Positions 1 through 35,928 of a stretch of DNA of 38,548 bases are shown one piece after another. Below the pieces are notes generated by a model. The model saw only the letters and a list, made by a program, of their open reading frames with translations, ran no database searches and was not told the DNA's origin. The position numbers and the translations under genes were made by a program. The DNA comes from a virus (lineage: Duplodnaviria; Heunggongvirae; Uroviricota; Caudoviricetes), in IMG/VR virus record IMGVR_UViG_2563366976_000006. The stretch is one strand, 5' to 3'. Every line of letters begins with the position of its first letter. Position 1 is the stretch's first letter.

Positions 1-1053
1 TTACGGGGTAATGCCAACCGCTGCCGCCACTTTGTCGCCACTTGGCAGCGTTGCCAGAGGATTGAAACGGAGCGCCGTTTCTAGATGATCCGGTGCCAGA
101 TGTGCGTAACGCATAGTCATTTTTATATCGTGGTGTCCGAGAATTTTTTGTAAGGCCAGAATGTTTCCACCCGACATCATGAAGTGCGCCGCAAACGTAT
201 GGCGCAGAACGTGTGTGAGTTGACCGCGAGGGAGCACGATAGACGTTTTTTCCATCACGGATAAAAATTGAAAATAGCAGTCTGTGAAGAAATTGAACCC
301 ATCAAGCGCCATGATCTCTTCGTAAAGCTCTTTACTGATAGGGATGCTTCTGTTTTTCTTCCCCTTCGTTCTGACAAAGGTAATTCGGTATTTGGTCACC
401 TGTGAGCGGGTAAGATTTACGGCTTCACGCCAGCGTGCGCCTGTGCTTAAGCATATCTTAACTACCGGTGCCAGAATTGGGTCCTGACGTTTGCAATCAG
501 CCAGCAATTCAACAATCTGCTCATGGGTAAGCCATGCCATCTCTTTTTCTGCGATGGTGAATTTTCGCATGTTCTCCAGTGGGTTCGGATACGACCATTC
601 GCCCAGACGGGATAGTTCGCTAAAAACACTACTTAGATAGCTTTGCTCCAGGTTAATGGTGACCGGGCTTGCTCCTTTCTTCCATTTCTCGCTGAAGTAG
701 ATCTCGCCTGTCAGGCGTTTATCTCGATAGTGGGCAAACATTTTAGAGGTGAGATCGGTTGCAAGAGGATTGCCCAGAGCGTCAACCATCAACAGCAATT
801 TGTCATAGACATGCTGCCCAGCTGTCAGAGATTTACCATGTAGTTTGAACCATAGCTCAACCACGTCTTTCAGTGTTCGACGATCCACTGATTCACCCAG
901 CCAGGGCTTTGCTTCGGTTTCTTCCATCGTGTGGCGCTCAAAAGCCAGTGCTTCGCCTTTGGTGGCGAATTGTTTACGCACACGACGCCCACTTCGTCCG
1001 GCGGGGTAACATTCGCAAAGCCATTTCCCTGTGGTTAGTTTTCGTACTGCCAT
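1..1053 (-). CDS. int: phage tyrosine integrase (P2/186 Int family)
   Basis: 350-aa ORF; C-terminal catalytic region with HxxR and a tyrosine (MTMRYAHL); stop codon at 1-3; position next to cI. Confidence 0.9.
   Translation of the reverse strand: MAVRKLTTGKWLCECYPAGRSGRRVRKQFATKGEALAFERHTMEETEAKPWLGESVDRRTLKDVVELWFKLHGKSLTAGQHVYDKLLLMVDALGNPLATDLTSKMFAHYRDKRLTGEIYFSEKWKKGASPVTINLEQSYLSSVFSELSRLGEWSYPNPLENMRKFTIAEKEMAWLTHEQIVELLADCKRQDPILAPVVKICLSTGARWREAVNLTRSQVTKYRITFVRTKGKKNRSIPISKELYEEIMALDGFNFFTDCYFQFLSVMEKTSIVLPRGQLTHVLRHTFAAHFMMSGGNILALQKILGHHDIKMTMRYAHLAPDHLETALRFNPLATLPSGDKVAAAVGITP
19..41. repeat. candidate attL core (cgctgccgccaCtttgtcgccaC)
   Basis: 21/23 identical to 35694-35716 in direct orientation; lies inside the 3' end of int. 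Confidence 0.5.
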
Positions 1054-1135: not shown

Positions 1136-2812
1136 CTAAGCAACATGTAGTTCATCGTTGGCGGAAGTGGCTGCTTTGCGCTCCTGCTCAATAGCTAGAG
1201 ACTCTCTATATTCTTTCGCCTCTGCAAACATTGTCCAGTGGGCGTTGATGTTCATGTCTTCAATAACTGATTTGATTTCTTTTAAATTTACGTTAAAAAA
1301 CTCTTTTCGTGAGTTAATTTTATTGACCTGCTTTTCGTTGAAAACTTTATGCAGATGGTTTTCTAATGATGGTGCATCATCACTATAAATCATCGCATGA
1401 ACATCGAACGAAAAAGGAACACTAGCATCTCCGAGTTCACGAACACGATCAAGTGGTTCAAGGCGGCGTGTCATTCCAATTTTATATACATCTTCGCCAA
1501 ATGAACCAATATTACTAATGATATAGACGTGGCCTGATCTGGTTTGTTGAGCCATAGAAATAGCTCGTTGATTTTTAGCTTCTGCTTCTTCATATTTTAA
1601 CTGTAGTTCAGCTATTTTTTGCTCTAAAGCTAAGCGTTGTTCTTCATTTGCAAGCATAAGTTCTTTCGTTGCTTTATTTATAGCTTGCTGAATAGCTTTT
1701 TCTTCTTTTTCAGCTTCTTTTATCGCTTTTTCATATTCTCTACGAGCTCTTTCCTCTTCACGAAGCTGTTCTTTAATCCTTCTTTGCTCTTCTTTTTCTT
1801 CGAGCATAATTTCATTAACTGCTACACCCCATTTTAGCTCGTTGAGTCTTGCCTGAAGATAGATGTCACTTATTTTTGCGGACCTAAAGGCAGAGCCATT
1901 GTAATTTACTAGTTGAAATGCATCTTTTATTTCTTGGGAAAGTTTTCCAAAATTGTTGTGTTTGACTTTTGATAAAATACTGTCAACTCTTCCATTGAAG
2001 GCATCCAAAACAAAGTTTATGGAAGTATTACGCCTGTTTTGCTCAACATAATCACACGAAGCAGCTTTATTAGTTTTTATTAATGATTTGGTTAACTCTC
2101 TGGCTTTTTGTAATTCCTTGCCTGCATCTGTAAATTCATAATTTTCTGCCAGCTCATCAAGTACACTACGGTTAGGGATGATCCATTCATCACCATAACC
2201 TTCAATTTTATTTTTCATTGATTTTGCAACTGCTTCATATTTTTCTGCAAACTCTTTAGCTTCATATGCTGAACCAGCAATCTCCTTTGCTCTTTCTTCT
2301 GCATCAGAAATAATTTTTACTGCATTGTCATTAGCATTTGAGATTAGCTCATTTGCTTTATTATTAGCATTATCAAGACGTTCTTTGGCTTTCAGGCGTG
2401 CATCGCGAGCGTCTTTGGTGATTGCTATAGCTTCGCTATTAGCGTTGCTTATTGTCATCTGAGCTTGATAATTTGCTTCGTTTACTGTTTTAGCCGCCTT
2501 AATTTGGGCATCATCTATTTTTTGCTTGGCTATTGAGTCCGCATTTTTTATCTTATTCTCTGCATCCATTACTGCGCTGTGCAATTCTTCGTATTGCCAC
2601 AATGGTGCTGCTCGCCCTTCAAGCTCTGATAATTCTCGTACGGTCTGTGCTAGTTTTTCTTGATTTTCAATCAGTTGGTTAGAAAGGGCTATGTTGTTAG
2701 CTGTCAGGTTATCTATAGCCGCTTTGTGTTTTTTACTTTGTTTAAATAATATTACAGCTAGAACAGGGGCGAGAAATGCTAATAAGAGTATAACGATGGC
2801 AAATGAATTCAT
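1136..2812 (-). CDS. membrane-anchored coiled-coil protein with DUF4041-like middle and T5orf172/GIY-YIG-like C-terminal domain (moron)
   Basis: 558-aa ORF; N-terminal hydrophobic helix, long E/K/A-rich coiled coil, C-terminal segment VYIISNIGSFGEDVYKIGMT typical of T5orf172-type domains; AT-rich relative to neighbours; AAGGA SD upstream. Confidence 0.6.
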   Translation of the reverse strand: MNSFAIVILLLAFLAPVLAVILFKQSKKHKAAIDNLTANNIALSNQLIENQEKLAQTVRELSELEGRAAPLWQYEELHSAVMDAENKIKNADSIAKQKIDDAQIKAAKTVNEANYQAQMTISNANSEAIAITKDARDARLKAKERLDNANNKANELISNANDNAVKIISDAEERAKEIAGSAYEAKEFAEKYEAVAKSMKNKIEGYGDEWIIPNRSVLDELAENYEFTDAGKELQKARELTKSLIKTNKAASCDYVEQNRRNTSINFVLDAFNGRVDSILSKVKHNNFGKLSQEIKDAFQLVNYNGSAFRSAKISDIYLQARLNELKWGVAVNEIMLEEKEEQRRIKEQLREEERARREYEKAIKEAEKEEKAIQQAINKATKELMLANEEQRLALEQKIAELQLKYEEAEAKNQRAISMAQQTRSGHVYIISNIGSFGEDVYKIGMTRRLEPLDRVRELGDASVPFSFDVHAMIYSDDAPSLENHLHKVFNEKQVNKINSRKEFFNVNLKEIKSVIEDMNINAHWTMFAEAKEYRESLAIEQERKAATSANDELHVA

Positions 2813-2832: not shown

Positions 2833-3429
2833 TTAATTCGAGACTATTGTACTTCTTATACAAGCAACCACTTCAATATCAGAAAATGCACATTCAAAGC
2901 TATTCTCTGCTGTTGTAATTTTAATCATTCCTTTAGGAAGCCTTGTGATTTTTCGAATGGAATAGGTTCCGTCGATATTGATTAACCAGTTTCCATCAAG
3001 TACTTCAGAAAATTTTTGATCACAAATGTATGTGACGAGTCCATCCTGAACAACAATTGGTGATGAAAGGTTTGCAGGAAGAAATGATGAATCGAAGACA
3101 TATGAACCGTCTTCAATCATTTTGCCTGCGGCAAGGCGAAACTTAACAAGCTCTTCTGTAGCTGCTGTCAGCGAGCTTTGCTTAAGGCCTTGTCCGGTAG
3201 TTAACCATTTGAGGGAGGTTCCTGTTTCAAGAGCACATTGGATTATCCAGTCAGCAGGAAATGTATCCCGCAAATACCTGTTCGCTAGTGTGCTTTTTGA
3301 TACTTCCAAGTGATCAGCTAAAGCCTGTCGTGTCGTAAAGCCATAGGCTTCGACTAATCGCTCAATCGCAGCCTTACCACCTTTATTGGGATTTATTTTG
3401 ATCTCACTTGGGTACTTTGATGTTGACAT
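2833..3429 (-). CDS. cI: CI-type immunity repressor (phage 186 CI-like)
   Basis: 198-aa ORF divergent from apl/cII; N-terminal HTH-like region; position between int side and the pR/pL switch. Confidence 0.8.
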   Translation of the reverse strand: MSTSKYPSEIKINPNKGGKAAIERLVEAYGFTTRQALADHLEVSKSTLANRYLRDTFPADWIIQCALETGTSLKWLTTGQGLKQSSLTAATEELVKFRLAAGKMIEDGSYVFDSSFLPANLSSPIVVQDGLVTYICDQKFSEVLDGNWLINIDGTYSIRKITRLPKGMIKITTAENSFECAFSDIEVVACIRSTIVSN

Positions 3430-5579: not shown

Positions 5580-6433
5580 GCACCATCCTGAAATGGGCGG
5601 GAAATAAAACCGCCATTATGCCAGAACTGAAAAAATACCTTCCTGCTGGCCCGCGACTGGTTGAACCTTTCGCGGGTTCCTGTGCTGTGATGATGGAAAC
5701 GGATTATCCCAGCTATCTGGTTGCGGATATTAATCCTGATTTAATCAACCTCTATAAAAAGGTTGCCGCTGATTGTGAATCGTTTATATCTCGCGCCAGA
5801 GTTTTATTTGAGATCGCAAACAGGGAGGTGGCTTATTACAACATAAGGCAGGAGTTTAACTGCTCAACTGAAATTACTGATTTCATGAAAGCGGTATATT
5901 TCCTGTATCTCAATCGTCACGGTTACCGTGGTTTATGTCGCTATAACAAGAGCGGGCATTTCAACATTCCCTACGGTAATTATAAAAATCCGTATTTCCC
6001 TGAAAAAGAACTTCGCACATTTGCAGAAAAAGCCCAGCGAGCAACGTTTATCTGCGCCAGCTTTGATGAAACGCTGGCGATGTTGAAGGCGGGAGATGTG
6101 GTGTATTGCGATCCGCCATATGACGGTACGTTTTCCGGCTATCACACTGATGGTTTCACTGAAGATGACCAGTATCACCTGGCATCCGTTCTTGAACATC
6201 GGTCATCAGAAGGACATCCGGTCATTGTTTCTAACAGTGACACATCCCTGATCCGTTCGCTGTATCGCAATTTTACTCACCACTATATCAAGGTAAAACG
6301 CAGCATCGGTGTGGCAGCTGGCGAGGGTAAATCAGCAACAGAAATCATTGCTGTTTCCGGGCCGCGCTGCTGGATGGGATTTGATTATTCGCGTGGCGTG
6401 GATAGTTCTGCCGTGTACGGAGTACGTGCATGA
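5576..6433 (+). CDS. dam: DNA adenine methyltransferase (Dam-like, N6-adenine)
   Basis: Starts [11 protein letters not shown]; FAGS motif and DPPY catalytic motif ([10 protein letters not shown]). Confidence 0.85.
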
Positions 6434-8844
6434 GTCATGCCGATATGAACAACTGCTGCGGCTTTAACGAGGCTGCCGCAGCATTCTCATGGAACAGCCC
6501 GAAAAAGGCCATTAACCCTTATCTGGACCCGGCGGAAGTTGCGCCGGTTTCTACGCTTTCAAACCTGATCACTCTGTACGCTGCCGATAACGAGCAGGAA
6601 CAGTTGCGCCGCGAGGCACTGAGTGATCAGGTCTGGGAGCGTTATTTCTTTAATGAATCACATGATCCTGTCCAGCGCGAAATGGAGCAGGATAAGCTCA
6701 TTAGCCGGGCAAAGCTGGCGCATGAGCAGCAGCGTTTTAATTCAGACATGGTCATTCTGGCGGACGTCAACGCCCAGCCTTCCCATATCAGCAAGCCGCT
6801 GATGCAACGTATTGAATACTTCAGCAGCCTGGGCAGGCCAAAGGCTTATTCCCGCTATTTACGTGAGACGATTAAGCCATGTCTGGAACGACTGGAGCAT
6901 GTACGCGACAGTCAGCTATCTGCATCTTTTCGCTTTATGGCAAGCCATGAAGGGCTGGACGGCCTGCTGATCCTGCCTGAAATGAGTCAGGATCAGGTGA
7001 AACGCCTGTCCACCCTGGTAGCTGCGCATATGAGTATGTGCCTTGATGCAGCTTGTGGTGATTTGTATGCCACCGATGACGTTAAGCCAGAAGAAATCCG
7101 CAAGACATGGGAAAAGGTGGCAGCGGAAACCCTGCGTCTGGATGTCATCCCACCTGCGTTTGAGCAACTCCGTCGGAAAAGAAACCGCCGTAAACCCGTG
7201 CCGTATGAACTCATTCCGGGTTCGCTGGCGCGTATGTTGTGCGCCGACTGGTGGTATCGGAAATTATGGAAGATGCGTTGCGAATGGCGGGAAGAGCAGT
7301 TGCGCGCTGTTTGCCTGGTCAGCAAAAAAGCATCTCCTTATGTCAGCTATGAAGCCGTGATGCATAAACGTGAGCAGCGCCGTAAGTCGCTGGAGTTTTT
7401 CCGTTCTCATGAACTGGTGAACGAAGACGGTGACACGCTGGACATGGAGGATGTGGTAAACGCCAGCAGCAGCAACCCTGCGCATCGCCGCAATGAGATG
7501 ATGGCCTGTGTTAAAGGTCTGGAGCTTATCGCGGAAATGCGCGGTGACTGCGCCGTTTTCTACACTATCACCTGTCCGTCGCGTTTCCATTCCACGCTAA
7601 ATAACGGCAGACCAAACCCGACCTGGACAAACGCGACGGTAAGACAAAGCAGCGATTATCTGGTCGGCATGTTTGCTGCATTTCGTAAGGCGATGCACAA
7701 AGCCGGGTTGCGCTGGTATGGCGTGCGGGTGGCTGAGCCGCATCATGATGGCACAGTTCACTGGCACCTGTTGTGTTTCATGCGCAAAAAAGACCGCCGT
7801 GCCATCACTGCATTACTGCGTAAGTTTGCCATCCGTGAAGACCGCGAGGAGCTGGGCAATAACACTGGGCCGCGCTTTAAGTCTGAGTTGATTAACCCGC
7901 GCAAAGGAACGCCGACAAGCTACATCGCGAAATATATCAGTAAGAACATTGACGGTCGTGGTCTGGCTGGCGAGATCAGCAAGGAAACGGGTAAATCTCT
8001 GCGTGATAACGCTGAATACGTGAATGCCTGGGCGTCTCTGCATCGTGTTCAGCAATTCCGCTTCTTTGGTATTCCGGGGCGTCAGGCTTACCGTGAACTT
8101 CGCTTGCTGGCTGGTCAGGCGGCAAGGCAACAGGGTGACAAAAAAGCAGGTGCGCCGGTACTGGATAACCCGCGTCTTGATGCCATTCTGGCTGCTGCTG
8201 ATGCTGGTTGTTTTGCCACCTACATCATGAAGCAGGGCGGCGTACTGGTTCCCCGTAAATATCACCTCATCAGAACCGCTTATGAAATCAACGAAGAGCC
8301 GACCGCCTATGGCGATCACGGCATTCGTATTTATGGCATCTGGTCACCCATTGCAGAGGGCAAGATCTGCACTCATGCAGTGAAGTGGAAAATGGTTCGT
8401 AAAGCCGTTGACGTTCAGGAGGCGGCAGCCGACCAGGGCGCTTGCGCCCCTTGGACTCGTGGCAATAACTGTCCCCTTGCTGAAAATTTGAACCAACAGG
8501 AGAAAGATAAATCAGCTGATGGGGACACCAGAACGGACATTACCCGCATGGATGACAAGGAGTTGCACGATTACCTGCACAGTATGAGCAAAAAAGATCG
8601 CCGGGAGCTGGCAGTAAGGTTGCGCCTGGTTAAACCGAAAAGGTGTAAAGACTACAAACAGCGAATTACAGATCATCAGCATCAGCAGCTCGTCTATGAA
8701 CTGAAGTCCAGAGGATTTGATGGCAGCGAGAAAGAAGTCGATTTGCTCCTTCGCGGTGGCAGTATTCCATCAGGAGCAGGCCTGCGTATCTTCTATCGGA
8801 ACCAGCGTCTGAAGGAAGATGATAAATGGCGGAACCTGTATTAA
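6430..8844 (+). CDS. A: replication initiation endonuclease (P2 gpA family)
   Basis: 804-aa ORF; HxH-type motif region (HWHLL) typical of rolling-circle initiators; position after the early genes. Confidence 0.85.
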
Positions 8845-8936
8845 TTACGCGGGTTAACAATTCGTGCTCTTAATAATACCAGGCATATCAGGCTGATGAA
8901 CGTAAAAAAACGTTTTACATCAGTAAGATTATTATA

Positions 8937-8956
8937 TACTGTAAATATAAACAGTG
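8937..8956. promoter_or_regulatory. LexA (SOS) box TACTGTAAATATAAACAGTG
   Basis: CTGT-N8-ACAG consensus just upstream of the tum-like ORFs. Confidence 0.6.
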
Positions 8957-8997
8957 GTTATACGTACAGTATTTCTTGTGGTGTCATAGGAGGAAAG

Positions 8998-9186
8998 ATG
9001 CAGGACTATTTTTTGGAGTCTTTGAAGCTCCAGCGCATTGATTTTTTTCTTAAGCTTGTAGCGGCTAGTGAGTGTAGTGATGAAGAGAAGGGGCTGGCCC
9101 TGCAGTGGGTTTCTGAACTGACAGATGAACTCATGGCAAAAATCAGAACCCACGAATACAACCGCTCAATGGATGTCATCAATTGA
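8998..9186 (+). CDS. Tum-like (antirepressor operon) small protein, N-terminal part
   Basis: 62-aa ORF with GGAGGA SD, downstream of the LexA box; different frame from the next ORF. Confidence 0.4.
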   Translation: MQDYFLESLKLQRIDFFLKLVAASECSDEEKGLALQWVSELTDELMAKIRTHEYNRSMDVIN

Positions 9187-9196
9187 GGTGACTTTT

Positions 9197-9430
9197 ATGC
9201 GCATTGAAATAATGATCGATAAAGAGCAGAAGATTAGCCAGTCTACCCTGGACGCCCTTGAATCCGAGCTTTACCGCAATCTGCGCCCCCTGTATCCCAA
9301 AACGGTAATTCGTATCCGCAAAGGTAGCTCTAACGGTGTGGAACTGACCGGACTGCAACTGGACGAAGAAAGAAAACGAGTGATGAAAATTATGCAGAAG
9401 GTGTGGGAAGACGACAGCTGGCTGCATTAA
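9197..9430 (+). CDS. DinI-family protein (Tum C-terminal-like)
   Basis: 77-aa ORF starting MRIEIMIDKE, DinI-like pattern; SOS-regulated position. Confidence 0.65.
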   Translation: MRIEIMIDKEQKISQSTLDALESELYRNLRPLYPKTVIRIRKGSSNGVELTGLQLDEERKRVMKIMQKVWEDDSWLH

Positions 9431-9565
9431 GAAACGTTGCTGGCGTCTGAACTTGTTTCTGGCGTCAGCAAGGTTGAACAACGAGCCCTTGCGAGGCGTT
9501 AGCTCTGTAGTGCATGTCTATGCCGCATGAGATCGCATGATCGTTTGAGGATCGTTTTTGCTAAG

Positions 9566-9590
9566 GCCCGCCAGAACTGGCGGGCTTTTG
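9566..9590 (+). terminator. rho-independent terminator (GCCCGCCAG..CTGGCGGGC TTTT)
   Basis: 9-bp GC-rich perfect stem followed by TTTT after the tum/dinI operon. Confidence 0.6.
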
Positions 9591-9640
9591 CGTAGATCAT
9601 GCAGGTGCATGAAAACCACTACATAAAGCGGGCAGGCGTG

Positions 9641-9659: not shown

Positions 9660-9675
9660 CTTGCCATCGAACTCT

Positions 9676-9858
9676 TTCTTTATTAGACTCAAAATGCTCT
9701 TTAGTGTAGGAACAATGGTTCCAGCCGGGTGATTAGCCAGGCTCTAATTTATTGTCCATAACAGGGTTGCGAAAGACACACACTCCTCCTTCGCATATCC
9801 TGCTTGGGCAGTCTATGCGAAGGAGGAGTGCATGTCTTTCGCTGTCTTTAGTAAAGGG
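9676..9858 (+). ncRNA. candidate retron msr-msd non-coding RNA (boundaries approximate)
   Basis: Immediately upstream of the retron RT; contains a 72-nt near-perfect hairpin and small msr-like hairpin (GGAAC AATG GTTCC); tentative a1/a2 pairing 9676-9687 with 9847-9858 needs G-U wobbles. Confidence 0.4.
9770..9841 (+). repeat. long inverted repeat / hairpin, candidate msd stem-loop
   Basis: 28-nt arms complementary at 26/28 positions, 16-nt loop containing an additional 4-bp stem. Confidence 0.6.
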
Positions 9859-9860
9859 CA

Positions 9861-10844
9861 ATGCTCGCTGCAATTGTTGCAGCGAGCATATCTGAGATGG
9901 ATATTATGCAGCTTGAAAAAAAATTATGTGAAAAATTCAACCTTACCCCTTTGAAGCTTTCTATCCTCTCATCCAAAGCTCCAAAAAAATATCGCGTATA
10001 TTATATACCCAAGAGAACTTCTGGTCTTAGGGCGATTGCTCAGCCGACTAAAGAGTTGAAGCAAATTCAACGTTTTTTGGTTTCGGAGTTGAAGCCTCTT
10101 TTGCCAATTCATTCATCAGCAATGGCTTACAGATGTGGCATAAGCATTAAGGATAATGCTGAACGTCACAAGAACAATCCATTTATATTAAAAATGGATT
10201 TTCAGAATTTTTTTAATAAAATTAAACCGGAAATTTTTTTTGATAAGTTCAAAAAAATGGATGTTCAACACAACGCCAGAGATGAAATACTTCTGCACAA
10301 TTTTTTGTTTTGGAAGCCAGGGCAAAAAAGAAGTATTACACATATATTGAGCGTAGGAGCACCGAGTTCTCCATTCATTAGTAATTTTGTCATGTTTGAT
10401 TTTGATTCAGCTATCAGTGAGTGGTGTGCTGATTTTGGTATTGTTTATACTCGTTATGCGGATGATATAACATTTTCAACCGCTAGAAAAAATATTTTAT
10501 TCAGTGTTCCTAAAATAGTTAAAAACATGCTTGCTGAGCACGCATCAGGTATTACCATTAATGAAGCCAAGACCATTTTTACATCTAAGGCTCACAATAG
10601 GCATGTTACAGGTGTAACTATTACTACTGATGGTGAATTATCTATAGGGCGAAAGAGAAAAAAATATCTTTTCTCTCTTGTTTTTAAATATAGCAATGGG
10701 AACTTGACAAGTGAAGAAATTTTATATGCTAAAGGACTGATGTCTTATTGCATGCATATTGAAAGAAATATAATAATAAGAATGAAAAATAAGTATGGTG
10801 CGGAAGTTATCAATAAATTTCTTAAGGAAGGTTGTGATGAATGA
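9861..10844 (+). CDS. retron-type reverse transcriptase
   Basis: 327-aa ORF; RVYYIPKRTSGLRAIAQPTKELK motif and YADD catalytic box; start may be 9861, 9897 or 9906. Confidence 0.85.
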   Translation: MLAAIVAASISEMDIMQLEKKLCEKFNLTPLKLSILSSKAPKKYRVYYIPKRTSGLRAIAQPTKELKQIQRFLVSELKPLLPIHSSAMAYRCGISIKDNAERHKNNPFILKMDFQNFFNKIKPEIFFDKFKKMDVQHNARDEILLHNFLFWKPGQKRSITHILSVGAPSSPFISNFVMFDFDSAISEWCADFGIVYTRYADDITFSTARKNILFSVPKIVKNMLAEHASGITINEAKTIFTSKAHNRHVTGVTITTDGELSIGRKRKKYLFSLVFKYSNGNLTSEEILYAKGLMSYCMHIERNIIIRMKNKYGAEVINKFLKEGCDE

Positions 10845-12450
10845 TTCTAAAAAAAGAGTGGATAATGTTTTTTCGGAGTTTATTGGTCTGATTAATGATG
10901 GCGTGCCTGAGGATAAATTAAAATATTCACCTGTATTGAATTTGCTAAATGAATCTTTAAATAAAGACAACTTATACCTTAAGAAAATATCAATTGTAGA
11001 CTTCAAAAGATTAAGGGATGTTATTGTAAATCTTGAAGATGATCTCACAGTTTTTGTTGCTGACAACGGCTATGGTAAAACAACTTTGCTTGATGCGATC
11101 GCAATTTCTTTAAGTTGGCTTCGTTCTAATATACAGAAAAAAGATAAACCTGGGTCGTATATAAGGGAAGTGGATATAAATAACTCAAAAGATGCCTTGT
11201 ATGCATCTATTGCTGCAACATTTAAAGTACAAGAGCTGAATACTAATGTTTTAATCACAAATGCAAAAGATGGTGTGTCTTTTAAACGCAGTAACGATTT
11301 ACAAGAAATTAAGCTGCTAGCAACAATGTACCGCTATGTTAATACGTTCTTAGATAATTCAAGTCTACCTGTGATGGCTTATTATTCAATTGTTAGGTCT
11401 GTCGTTGGTGGTGGTATTGATAATAGAAGAAGAAGCGGTAAGAATAAAGTTTCTTGGTCCAAATTTGATGTGTATGACGATTTCATGTTTGATAGAAATG
11501 ATTTTGGCGAATTTTTAAATTGGCTCATGTTTTTATCGAATAAATCCGCTCATGAGAATCCAGTGGTCACTGATAACCCAGAGTTACTCAGAAAGGAAAT
11601 AGAAAGTATCAATAACACAATTGAACAACTAAGTATTGTTTCTAACATCGATTTTAGTATTATTAATCAGCTAAAGAGTAGTCTTGAAGAGAAAAAAAAC
11701 CAATTAAATAAGTTTAGTAGTGAAGGGTTTTTAAGTTCATCTGTCTTATATAGGAATGTAATAAATGCTATATTGAGATTTTTGCCTGAATTCGAAAGCA
11801 TTAATCTGGTTTATAGTGAGACTGATGTTAAGCTTGTTCTTATCAAGAATGGTATTCAATTAGATGCGCAACAACTCTCACAAGGTGAGAAAACCATACT
11901 TACTCTGGTAGGTGATTTAGCTCGCCGACTTTCCCTTTTGAATCCAGAGCTACAAAATCCATTTGAAGGTCAAGGCATAGTATTAATTGATGAGGTTGAT
12001 TTGCACCTTCATCCAACTTGGCAGCAGAAAATTATAGAGCGGCTATTAACAACCTTTCCTAATGTTCAGTTTGTTCTTTCTACACACAGCCCTCAAGTCA
12101 TATCTACTGTTCCTGCCAGGAGCATAAGGATTTTAGAGGAGGTGGAAGATGAATTTGGTGATATTTCGATAAAAGCTGTTAGGCCCCGCTTTCAAACTAA
12201 AGGGGTGATGAATAGTGATGCATTACTTTATGGAATGGGAGCAGACCCTGCGCCTCCTGTAGAAGAAGTAAAATGGTTGGAAGAGTACAAAAAATTTATT
12301 GAATTGGATCAGTTTGATAGCGATTCAGCGCTTAAACTACGCCAGAATATAATAAGTCACTTTGGGGAAGATCATCCTTTAGTTGTAGAACTCGATCAGA
12401 TGACTTCACTCATGGAGTTTAAAAGAAAAATTAGAAATAAAAAACAATGA
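10837..12450 (+). CDS. retron effector ATPase (PtuA-like, ABC/AAA-type)
   Basis: Walker A DNGYGKTT, Walker B LIDEVDLHLH; start overlaps RT stop by 8 nt. Confidence 0.8.
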   Translation: MNDSKKRVDNVFSEFIGLINDGVPEDKLKYSPVLNLLNESLNKDNLYLKKISIVDFKRLRDVIVNLEDDLTVFVADNGYGKTTLLDAIAISLSWLRSNIQKKDKPGSYIREVDINNSKDALYASIAATFKVQELNTNVLITNAKDGVSFKRSNDLQEIKLLATMYRYVNTFLDNSSLPVMAYYSIVRSVVGGGIDNRRRSGKNKVSWSKFDVYDDFMFDRNDFGEFLNWLMFLSNKSAHENPVVTDNPELLRKEIESINNTIEQLSIVSNIDFSIINQLKSSLEEKKNQLNKFSSEGFLSSSVLYRNVINAILRFLPEFESINLVYSETDVKLVLIKNGIQLDAQQLSQGEKTILTLVGDLARRLSLLNPELQNPFEGQGIVLIDEVDLHLHPTWQQKIIERLLTTFPNVQFVLSTHSPQVISTVPARSIRILEEVEDEFGDISIKAVRPRFQTKGVMNSDALLYGMGADPAPPVEEVKWLEEYKKFIELDQFDSDSALKLRQNIISHFGEDHPLVVELDQMTSLMEFKRKIRNKKQ

Positions 12451-12462
12451 GGAGACTTGAGG

Positions 12463-13131
12463 ATGAAATTTCTTCGAAGGATATATCCTGGCCCTAACGT
12501 GCTAAGTAGTTATGATTTTAATACTCAAACTTGGGATGATGTATCATCATCTGACAAAAAAGATATTTGGGTAGATTTAGTTAAAATGCAAGGCAAAGTA
12601 TGCGCTTATTGTGAAAGGAAAATAAACCTAACAAAAGAGGGGGATAAGCATATTGAGCATTTCAAGCGAAAAGGTATTCATCGCGAATTAACGTTTAACT
12701 GGGAGAATCTGTTTGGTTCGTGTGGGGAAAAACAAAGATGCGGATTCTACAAAGACAAACAAGAATATAATGAGGGTGACCTGTTAAAAGCTGATGAAAT
12801 GGATCCTGAAGATTTTTTTGTTTTTATCTATAGTGGTGATGTTATTGTAAAACCTGAGATAAATGAACGAAATAAAGTAATAGCTGAGGTTACCCTGAGG
12901 GTATTCAATCTTAATCCCGAGAACGGTGGTGTTAAAGCCGAGAGAAGAAATGTCCTCGAGAAAGGCTTAGGCACTATAAAGGGGTATGTTAAGATTGCTC
13001 AAGACTTAATTGATAGTGGTGAGGATGCAGAAGAAGTTCGGCAATATGTTCGGGATGAGTATTATGAAAAAATTTCACAAATGGATTTTAAAACTGCAAG
13101 GAAACATGTTTTTGAAGCATTTCTACCTTGA
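12463..13131 (+). CDS. retron effector HNH endonuclease (PtuB-like)
   Basis: CAYCERK...HIEHF...C-x-x-C pattern; GGAG SD; 12 nt after ATPase stop. Confidence 0.75.
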   Translation: MKFLRRIYPGPNVLSSYDFNTQTWDDVSSSDKKDIWVDLVKMQGKVCAYCERKINLTKEGDKHIEHFKRKGIHRELTFNWENLFGSCGEKQRCGFYKDKQEYNEGDLLKADEMDPEDFFVFIYSGDVIVKPEINERNKVIAEVTLRVFNLNPENGGVKAERRNVLEKGLGTIKGYVKIAQDLIDSGEDAEEVRQYVRDEYYEKISQMDFKTARKHVFEAFLP

Positions 13132-35716: not shown

Positions 35717-35773
35717 CGTTAAAAAACAGTGCTTCTAACATCATGATTTTAAATAGCATAAATTTCAGGCAAC

Positions 35774-35816
35774 AAAAAACCCATCAACCTTGAACCGAAA
35801 TGGCGGGGTTGATGGG
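35774..35816 (-). terminator. candidate rho-independent terminator downstream of ybjL (minus strand)
   Basis: 10-bp stem cccatcaacc/ggttgatggg followed by TTTTTT on minus strand; loop is long (17 nt). Confidence 0.45.
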
Positions 35817-35928
35817 CTCCACAAAATGGGGACATCAAAGAAAAGCAGTGGCACTAATTAAGACTGATGCCCTGCGGAAAAGTTCTGCGGTTGTGCAAAA
35901 AAATTTCATTTTCAGGGCAACTTCAGTT

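Follow-up and report, generated by a model that had tools for sequence, protein, structure and literature searches.

A candidate SOS-controlled tumA-tumB module behind the replicase gene of a Fels-2-like prophage

Gene content and control region of the module

The DNA analyzed here (38.5 kb in its full length, hereafter the window) is a Fels-2-like prophage (Felsduovirus, P2/186 family). It is inserted at the rcdA-ybjL/rybB locus, as is DuoHS in E. coli HS. Its early region encodes an integrase, a CI immunity repressor of the 186 type (32% identical to 186 CI), a CP76-type CII, a Dam methylase, and the gpA replicase. Directly 3' of the gpA gene, i.e., at the right end of the early region, where the original prediction had placed it, lies a module of two small genes, tumA (ORF1) and tumB (ORF2), preceded by a promoter and LexA (SOS) boxes. 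The features of the early region, the module, and the insertion site are as follows.

1-1053, minus strand: integrase, early region
2833-3429, minus strand: 186-type CI immunity repressor, 198 aa (Pfam Phage_CI_repr, 8e-32; Phage_CI_C, 3.5e-27)
6430-8844: gpA replicase, replication gene A (Pfam Phage_GPA, 1e-127)
8904-8910, plus strand: A-tract, read from the sequence
8914-8919, plus strand: -35 hexamer TTTACA of the SOS promoter (the equivalent of 186 p95), read from the sequence
8935-8940, plus strand: alternative candidate -10 hexamer TATACT, 15-nt spacer
8937-8942, plus strand: candidate -10 hexamer TACTGT, 17-nt spacer; the same hexamer is annotated as the -10 of 186 p95
8937-8956, plus strand: SOS (LexA) box 1, TACTGTAAATATAAACAGTG, matching 17 of 20 consensus positions and overlapping the -10
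8952-8971, plus strand: predicted SOS box 2, CAGTGGTTATACGTACAGTA, overlapping box 1 at a 15-nt offset, with a perfect right arm
8988-8993, plus strand: tumA ribosome-binding site AGGAGG, read from the sequence
8998-9186, plus strand: tumA-type antirepressor gene (ORF1), 62 aa, start codon ATG at 8998, stop codon at 9184-9186
9185-9191, plus strand: tumB ribosome-binding site GAGGTGA, overlapping the tumA stop codon
9197-9430, plus strand: tumB, DinI-like gene (ORF2), 77 aa, stop codon at 9428-9430 (Pfam DinI, 4.7e-23)
9563-9592, plus strand: intrinsic terminator, a GC-rich, 11-pair hairpin (GGCCCGCCA/TGGCGGGCC) followed by TTTT
35771-35849, minus strand: RybB small RNA (Rfam, 105 bits)

The early region also holds, between the integrase gene and cI, a 558-aa gene (1136-2812, minus strand) that matches PADLOC PD-Lambda-1 (2.3e-120) and carries DUF4041 and T5orf172/MUG113 domains. 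Besides the retron described below, it is probably a second anti-phage gene borne by this prophage.

Either candidate -10 hexamer is a poor match to TATAAT. Since neither reaches the thresholds of a generic promoter scan of the window, the SOS promoter was absent from the scan output with both of them. Comparison with 186 places these elements: the annotated -35 of p95 (TTCACA) occupies the position equivalent to TTTACA in the window, and box 1 takes the position of the annotated 186 LexA site. Box 1 is also the sole CTGT-N8-ACAG in the 38.5-kb window. This bare pattern is common by chance, with at least one match in 49 of 100 shuffles of the window; the full 20-mer LexA consensus with up to three mismatches occurs exactly once in the window and in none of the 100 shuffles. 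Box 1 thus exceeds chance expectation, and the claim of a LexA box overlapping the promoter of two small ORFs holds, with the box lying over the -10.

We then turned to 37 loci with an ORF1 homologue from different enterobacterial species, collected by means of an alignment of closer relatives. An SOS box was found just 5' of the ORF1 homologue in 36 of these 37 Enterobacterales loci. For footprinting, 24 distinct upstream regions, exclusively of the two-box type, were aligned. The columns with at least 90% conservation comprise the A-tract (AAAAA), TTTAC-A, TATACTGT, CAGTG, TAT, TACAGT, AGGAGG, and ATG. The promoter spacer is constant in length and variable in sequence across the 24 relatives, and the 5'UTR varies in both respects. 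Conserved columns amid a varying spacer and 5'UTR mark, as a footprint, a promoter together with its operator and ribosome-binding site. At the sequence level, the window thus has what a LexA-repressed promoter calls for, namely an SOS box over the -10/start region.

The tumA start deserves comment. A mechanically called 96-aa ORF from the ATG at 8896 was rejected as the gene because its start would precede the promoter; the true start is the ATG at 8998. Many of the ORF1 homologues in the protein collection are called at 87-106 aa, and the 96-aa form corresponds to a start at the ATG equivalent to 8896. A 96-aa call of this type includes the -35 and -10 hexamers as well as both SOS boxes, whereas the gene predicted by PGAP has the 62-aa length; the longer calls probably have a mis-annotated start.

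At the other end, RNA folding of 9425-9600 (z-score of -3.3) gave the 11-pair terminator hairpin, and Fels-2 has the same terminator sequence 3' of its orf97-like gene. The terminator was established by folding and comparison, as a generic terminator scan of the window had missed it. A further hairpin, lacking a U-tract, lies 3' of ORF2 (9433-9475). It belongs to a stretch (9433-9505, plus strand) in which the hairpin and a segment, GGTTGAACAACGAGCC..GCGAGGCGTTAGC, are common to 186 and PSP3; this element is located 5' of t95b near the right genome end in 186 and directly after tumB in PSP3. The stretch is thus non-coding and conserved at the right end of genomes of the P2/186 family. A search for an orf97 homologue in the window found none, and the Rfam search returned nothing within the tumA-tumB module itself.

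Beyond the terminator, the place that orf97 and other accessory genes take in Fels-2 and 186 is occupied by a type I-A retron defense system (Ec78/Septu-like; 9661-13131, plus strand), with the following parts.

9661-9689, plus strand: retron promoter-like site, from the generic promoter scan
9696-9760, plus strand: msr (Rfam, 47 bits, slightly below the gathering score, 52)
9769-9842, plus strand: msd stem-loop, 35-nt arms, 89% complementary
9861-10844, plus strand: retron reverse transcriptase (PADLOC RT_I-A, 1.5e-131)
10795-12450, plus strand: PtuA ATPase, part of the retron
12457-13131, plus strand: PtuB HNH protein, part of the retron

Because it has a promoter-like site and an msr/msd region of its own, the retron is probably a separate transcription unit outside the SOS operon.

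Relationship of the two genes to 186 Tum

The second ORF had been described as DinI-like, and our data agree with this description. ORF2 scores 81.7 bits against Pfam DinI (PF06183; cut-off, 24.2), aligns end to end with E. coli DinI (PDB 1GHH; residues 1-75 to 1-77, E = 7e-7), and has the acidic C-terminal W-E-D-x-x-W segment of the DinI family. Against the NCBIfam equivalog for chromosomal DinI, it reaches 44 bits (cut-off, 111), and it is therefore a member of the family and not an orthologue of the host DinI. ORF2 is 99% identical to Fels-2 STM2726.1 and 79% identical to PSP3 TumB. It also aligns to residues 71-145 of 186 Tum, i.e., to the C-terminal half, with 41-42% identity. Its start coincides exactly in position with the internal GTG from which 186 makes a 77-aa product, which ORF2 matches end to end and which is annotated in 186 as a protein that "modulates SOS induction." By analogy, ORF2 may bind RecA filaments and modulate co-protease activity. 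About 15 of the 37 related loci have the SOS box and the tumA homologue yet no DinI-like gene, so this gene is an optional accessory in the ORF1 family; the core mechanism accordingly does without tumB, and the role assigned to this gene is tentative.

ORF1 is 100% identical to Fels-2 STM2728, and its relation to 186 Tum is far more distant. BLASTP gave no alignment between the two proteins, and the identity between ORF1 and the N-terminal half of 186 Tum is ~21%. A shallow profile, built from relatives that are more than 80% identical, matched 186 Tum in register at a marginal level (HMMER, 14.6 bits; hhalign probability of 23%, P = 9e-4), so diverse representatives from an exhaustive search were needed. 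An HMMER search of 1.8 billion representatives yielded 86 ORF1-family clusters, most of them of about 50-100 aa. The HMM of 39 diverse members of this family matched 186 Tum with 34.3 bits (E = 1e-12 in a single comparison), compared with 6.0 bits for the best of 2000 shuffled controls. The match joins residues 5-43 of 186 Tum to model positions 5-43, i.e., in register from the N-terminus. Indeed, hhalign comparison of the ORF1 family with the family of the 186 Tum N-terminal half gave a probability of 97% (E = 8e-11). In PHROGs, 186 Tum matches the ORF1 family, phrog_698 (2.4e-5, residues 7-44), and ORF1 matches the PSP3 TumA family, phrog_1993 (0.0022). Collectively, these profile comparisons identify ORF1 as a remote homologue of the N-terminal (antirepressor) half of 186 Tum.

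The original prediction had proposed an alignment to 186 Tum as a check and had named, as an outcome that would speak against it, a Tum that aligns to only one of the two ORFs. Such an outcome is seen at BLASTP sensitivity and vanishes with profiles, so the BLASTP result by itself would have led to a wrong rejection; both ORFs align, ORF2 closely and ORF1 remotely. We attribute this unequal divergence to the antirepressor tracking its own CI, which itself shares 32% identity with that of 186, and to the DinI part facing a conserved host target.

Other searches with ORF1 were less informative. It has no family in Pfam, NCBIfam, or PADLOC, and a sequence search of the PDB with the ORF1-family profile found nothing. 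AlphaFold2 predicts a two-helix hairpin (helices 2-23 and 28-61; pLDDT, 89), for which Foldseek returned only generic helical hairpins from the PDB, all with E > 1. In PGAP, Pfam, NCBIfam, and PHROGs, the protein is labeled "hypothetical" or of "unknown function."

ORF1 and ORF2 lie in different frames, and the original prediction had left open whether the split is native or a frameshift. In 186, a single protein of 146 aa, Tum, covers both, with one half corresponding to each ORF. The two ORFs could then be a frameshifted and possibly inactive copy of a single 186-type tum of ~146 codons, an explanation to which we assign almost no likelihood. In the window, the ORF1 stop codon is followed by the tumB ATG 10 nt further on, which has its own ribosome-binding site. 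The same two-gene layout is found in Fels-2, in PSP3 (where the genes are annotated tumA and tumB), and in DuoHS of E. coli HS, and the 756-bp module region matches 1144 of 5426 complete E. coli genomes, i.e., about a fifth. In the set of 37 loci from different species, the DinI-like gene is either missing or located 8-13 nt 3' of the ORF1 stop in a relative frame of 0, 1, or 2, and in every case a stop codon and a ribosome-binding site of its own come before its ATG. Among the 86 representative clusters of the ORF1 family, there is none in which length or match position would fit a DinI part fused at the C-terminus, and the relatives listed for the N-terminal half of 186 Tum are for the most part stand-alone proteins (63-91 aa), some of them named "Tum protein." The 77-aa product that 186 makes from its internal GTG likewise matches ORF2 as a complete protein. 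It has been reported for both Fels-2 and PSP3 that tum is split by a stop codon, with the antirepressor activity of PSP3 residing in the upstream gene (Lemire 2011, PMC3121763). On this comparative evidence, the two-gene layout is native, and the frameshift is for practical purposes refuted.

At the junction of the two genes, the tumA stop codon and a portion of the tumB ribosome-binding site fall within a possible stem-loop (GTCATC/GGTGAC, 9175-9192). A further, outer pairing between CAATG at the end of tumA and CATTG at the start of tumB (within 9162-9204) recurs in many relatives (17 loci examined). The pairing in 9162-9204 could couple tumB translation to that of tumA; we do not conclude that it does because the paired bases lie in conserved codons.

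A second SOS box and its likeness to colicin operators

The predicted box 2 differs from the 20-mer consensus at six positions, and its left arm (GTGG) is degenerate. By contrast, conservation of its right arm (TACAGT) reaches at least 90% in the 24 two-box relatives, with the 15-nt offset exactly kept, and the 5'UTR 3' of it diverges in sequence and length. The two-box form accounts for about two-thirds of the related loci, whereas 186, PSP3, and the relatives from Pantoea and Erwinia have a single box near the ribosome-binding site.

Searching plasmids with a 60-nt operator query returned matches in 861 records. The two matches that we inspected lie just 5' of the genes for colicin N (cna) and pesticin (pst); apart from these, there are a few full-length plasmid matches that come without an annotated feature. 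Over the 46 nt at 8932-8977, the window shares 87% identity with the operators of colicin N and pesticin, and the stretch common to the window and both operators reads TATACTGTA-ATA-AA-CAGTGGTTATA-GTACAGTATTT. For Fels-2, whose operator differs from that of the window by one base in the box 2 spacer, the match to the colicin N operator covers ~19 nt, GGTTATATGTACAGTATTT. Like the window, cna and Yersinia pestis pPCP1 pst have two overlapping boxes with a 15-nt offset. The colicin-type layout, in which two boxes at this offset sit at or just 3' of the -10, is thus present in the window at the sequence level. The cna and pst operators, however, control toxins instead of a phage antirepressor, and their -35 region and downstream sequence are unrelated to those of the window. 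The ~19-nt likeness could have come from an exchange in which an operator cassette passed between P2-like phages and Col plasmids, or else from convergence.

Colicin operators of this form have been reported to bind two LexA dimers, resulting in very tight repression (PMC2994835). By analogy, two LexA dimers may occupy 8937-8971, and, compared with 186, such a double operator would repress more tightly and set a later threshold for induction. We therefore put forward, tentatively and with confidence that falls just short of even, that the tum promoter of the Fels-2 type has a double SOS operator of the colicin kind, as opposed to the single box of 186, PSP3, and the Pantoea and Erwinia relatives.

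An alternative, which we judge unlikely although it merits serious consideration, is that box 2 is non-functional, that box 1 alone controls the promoter as in 186, and that the likeness to colicin operators is coincidental or reflects another constraint (start region, 5'UTR). Its six mismatches and GTGG left arm fit such an account, as do 186, PSP3, and some relatives, in which a single box suffices, and our search of the accessible literature found no report of LexA binding to this operator. Less easily reconciled with it are the conservation of TACAGT at the exact offset while the UTR beyond it diverges, the 87% identity of a 46-nt stretch to two colicin-type operators, and the reported two-dimer binding in that operator class. 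The degeneracy of the left arm is, moreover, common to the colicin operators and is forced by the overlap with box 1. We found no description of a Fels-2-type double operator in the searchable literature, a scope that leaves out the primary Fels-2 paper (Bunny 2002). The colicin-type double operator is the only detail of the module that is possibly new.

Related systems and a model of prophage induction

The module itself is already known: it belongs to the textbook biology of Fels-2 and 186, is identical to that of Fels-2 at the protein level, and has been addressed by genetics in DuoHS. In Fels-2, the module likewise follows gene A, the promoter/operator is near-identical, and the locus STM2728/STM2727 (STM2726.1) encodes proteins 100% (ORF1) and 99% (ORF2) identical to those of the window. 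Fels-2 differs in that an orf97-like gene (STM2726, 732 bp) separates its DinI-like gene from the terminator. Its operon STM2726-2727-2728 is induced by the mutagen MX, with STM2727 increased 5.5- to 14.8-fold and listed with the LexA regulon (PMC2225428). It is also because of Fels-2 that lexA null mutations kill S. Typhimurium LT2, according to the account of Bunny 2002 given in PMC3121763.

DuoHS shares with the window prophage its chromosomal site (between rcdA and ybjL), the two-gene layout, and a near-identical operator, and differs from it in the downstream accessory genes. Its ECHS_RS04495 encodes a 62-aa protein identical to ORF1 at 60 of 62 positions. This is exactly the gene that was deleted as tum in the Phollow paper, in which either this deletion or lexA(Ind-) abolished mitomycin C-induced lysis and virion formation (PMC12055606). 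The SOS inducibility that the original prediction had implied is thus published for two near-identical modules, those of Fels-2 and DuoHS, and by analogy would extend to the window.

PSP3 has two separate genes behind a LexA box, likewise after gene A, and its annotation gives tumA as "UV induction of prophage" and tumB as DinI-like. PSP3 TumA shares ~22% identity with ORF1 and is placed in another PHROG family (phrog_1993 instead of phrog_698); in addition, its single SOS box lies near the ribosome-binding site, and 3 nt separate tumA from tumB.

The likeness to the LexA-controlled antirepressor operon of 186, on which the original prediction was modeled, is well supported: the promoter and operator match p95, and both halves of Tum are represented. 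More specifically, the p95-tum-orf97 operon of 186 has its LexA box over the -10 TACTGT and a CI of the same type as its target. It differs in that the antirepressor and DinI parts are fused in one 146-aa protein, in its single SOS box, and in the presence of orf97. The 186 Tum protein is an anti-CI factor expressed from the LexA-regulated promoter p95 (PMC7708051). Direct Tum-CI binding has been demonstrated for 186 Tum only, as Shearwin 1998 is cited in PMC3121763. A more distant parallel is offered by the Gifsy-type operons (GfoA/GftA), in which LexA represses a DinI homologue and a small antirepressor that inactivates a non-cleavable repressor (PMC3121763); there, dinI comes first, the antirepressors and repressors are of unrelated families, and the phage backbone is lambdoid.

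Given these parallels, the module is very probably an SOS operon of a Fels-2-type (P2/186 family) prophage that triggers induction after DNA damage. In the lysogen, LexA bound to the two overlapping SOS boxes (8937-8971) would cover the -10 and the start region and keep the operon silent. Upon DNA damage, RecA-stimulated self-cleavage of LexA would free the promoter, and a short two-gene transcript ending at the terminator (9563-9592) would be made. TumA, a 62-aa predicted helical hairpin, would then bind the 186-type CI (2833-3429, minus strand) and block its binding to operators, and the loss of CI from its operators would release the early lytic promoter. That the CI of the window is the target of TumA, and that the two proteins bind each other directly, we infer from 186. 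The 77-aa, DinI-like TumB may act on RecA filaments and thereby modulate the SOS signal, again by analogy.

One might instead suppose that the DinI-like gene alone matters, i.e., that the module tunes the host SOS response, that ORF1 is an unrelated small protein or a leader, and that induction proceeds in another way, e.g., by CI cleavage. The database record of ORF1, with its hypothetical label, its lack of a Pfam, NCBIfam, or PADLOC family or a solved relative, and its lack of BLASTP similarity to 186 Tum, could be read in this way. We nevertheless consider such an arrangement highly improbable given the in-register profile homology of ORF1 to the Tum N-terminal half, the abolition of DuoHS induction by deletion of the ORF1 homologue alone (PMC12055606), the ~15 of 37 relatives that retain the LexA box and ORF1 without the DinI-like gene, and the mapping of PSP3 antirepressor activity to the upstream gene (PMC3121763).

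With tumA as the antirepressor gene, a 62-aa protein that carries a hypothetical label decides whether the prophage is inducible by DNA damage. Since tumA is unnamed in the databases and the module occurs in about one-fifth of complete E. coli genomes, adopting tumA as a family name would improve the prediction of SOS inducibility for P2-like prophages. In addition, if both boxes bind LexA, these very common prophages would be under tighter silencing than 186, and they would be induced only late, once LexA is deeply depleted. The double colicin-like operator thus suggests a higher induction threshold than that of 186, which would be relevant to prophage induction triggered by antibiotics.
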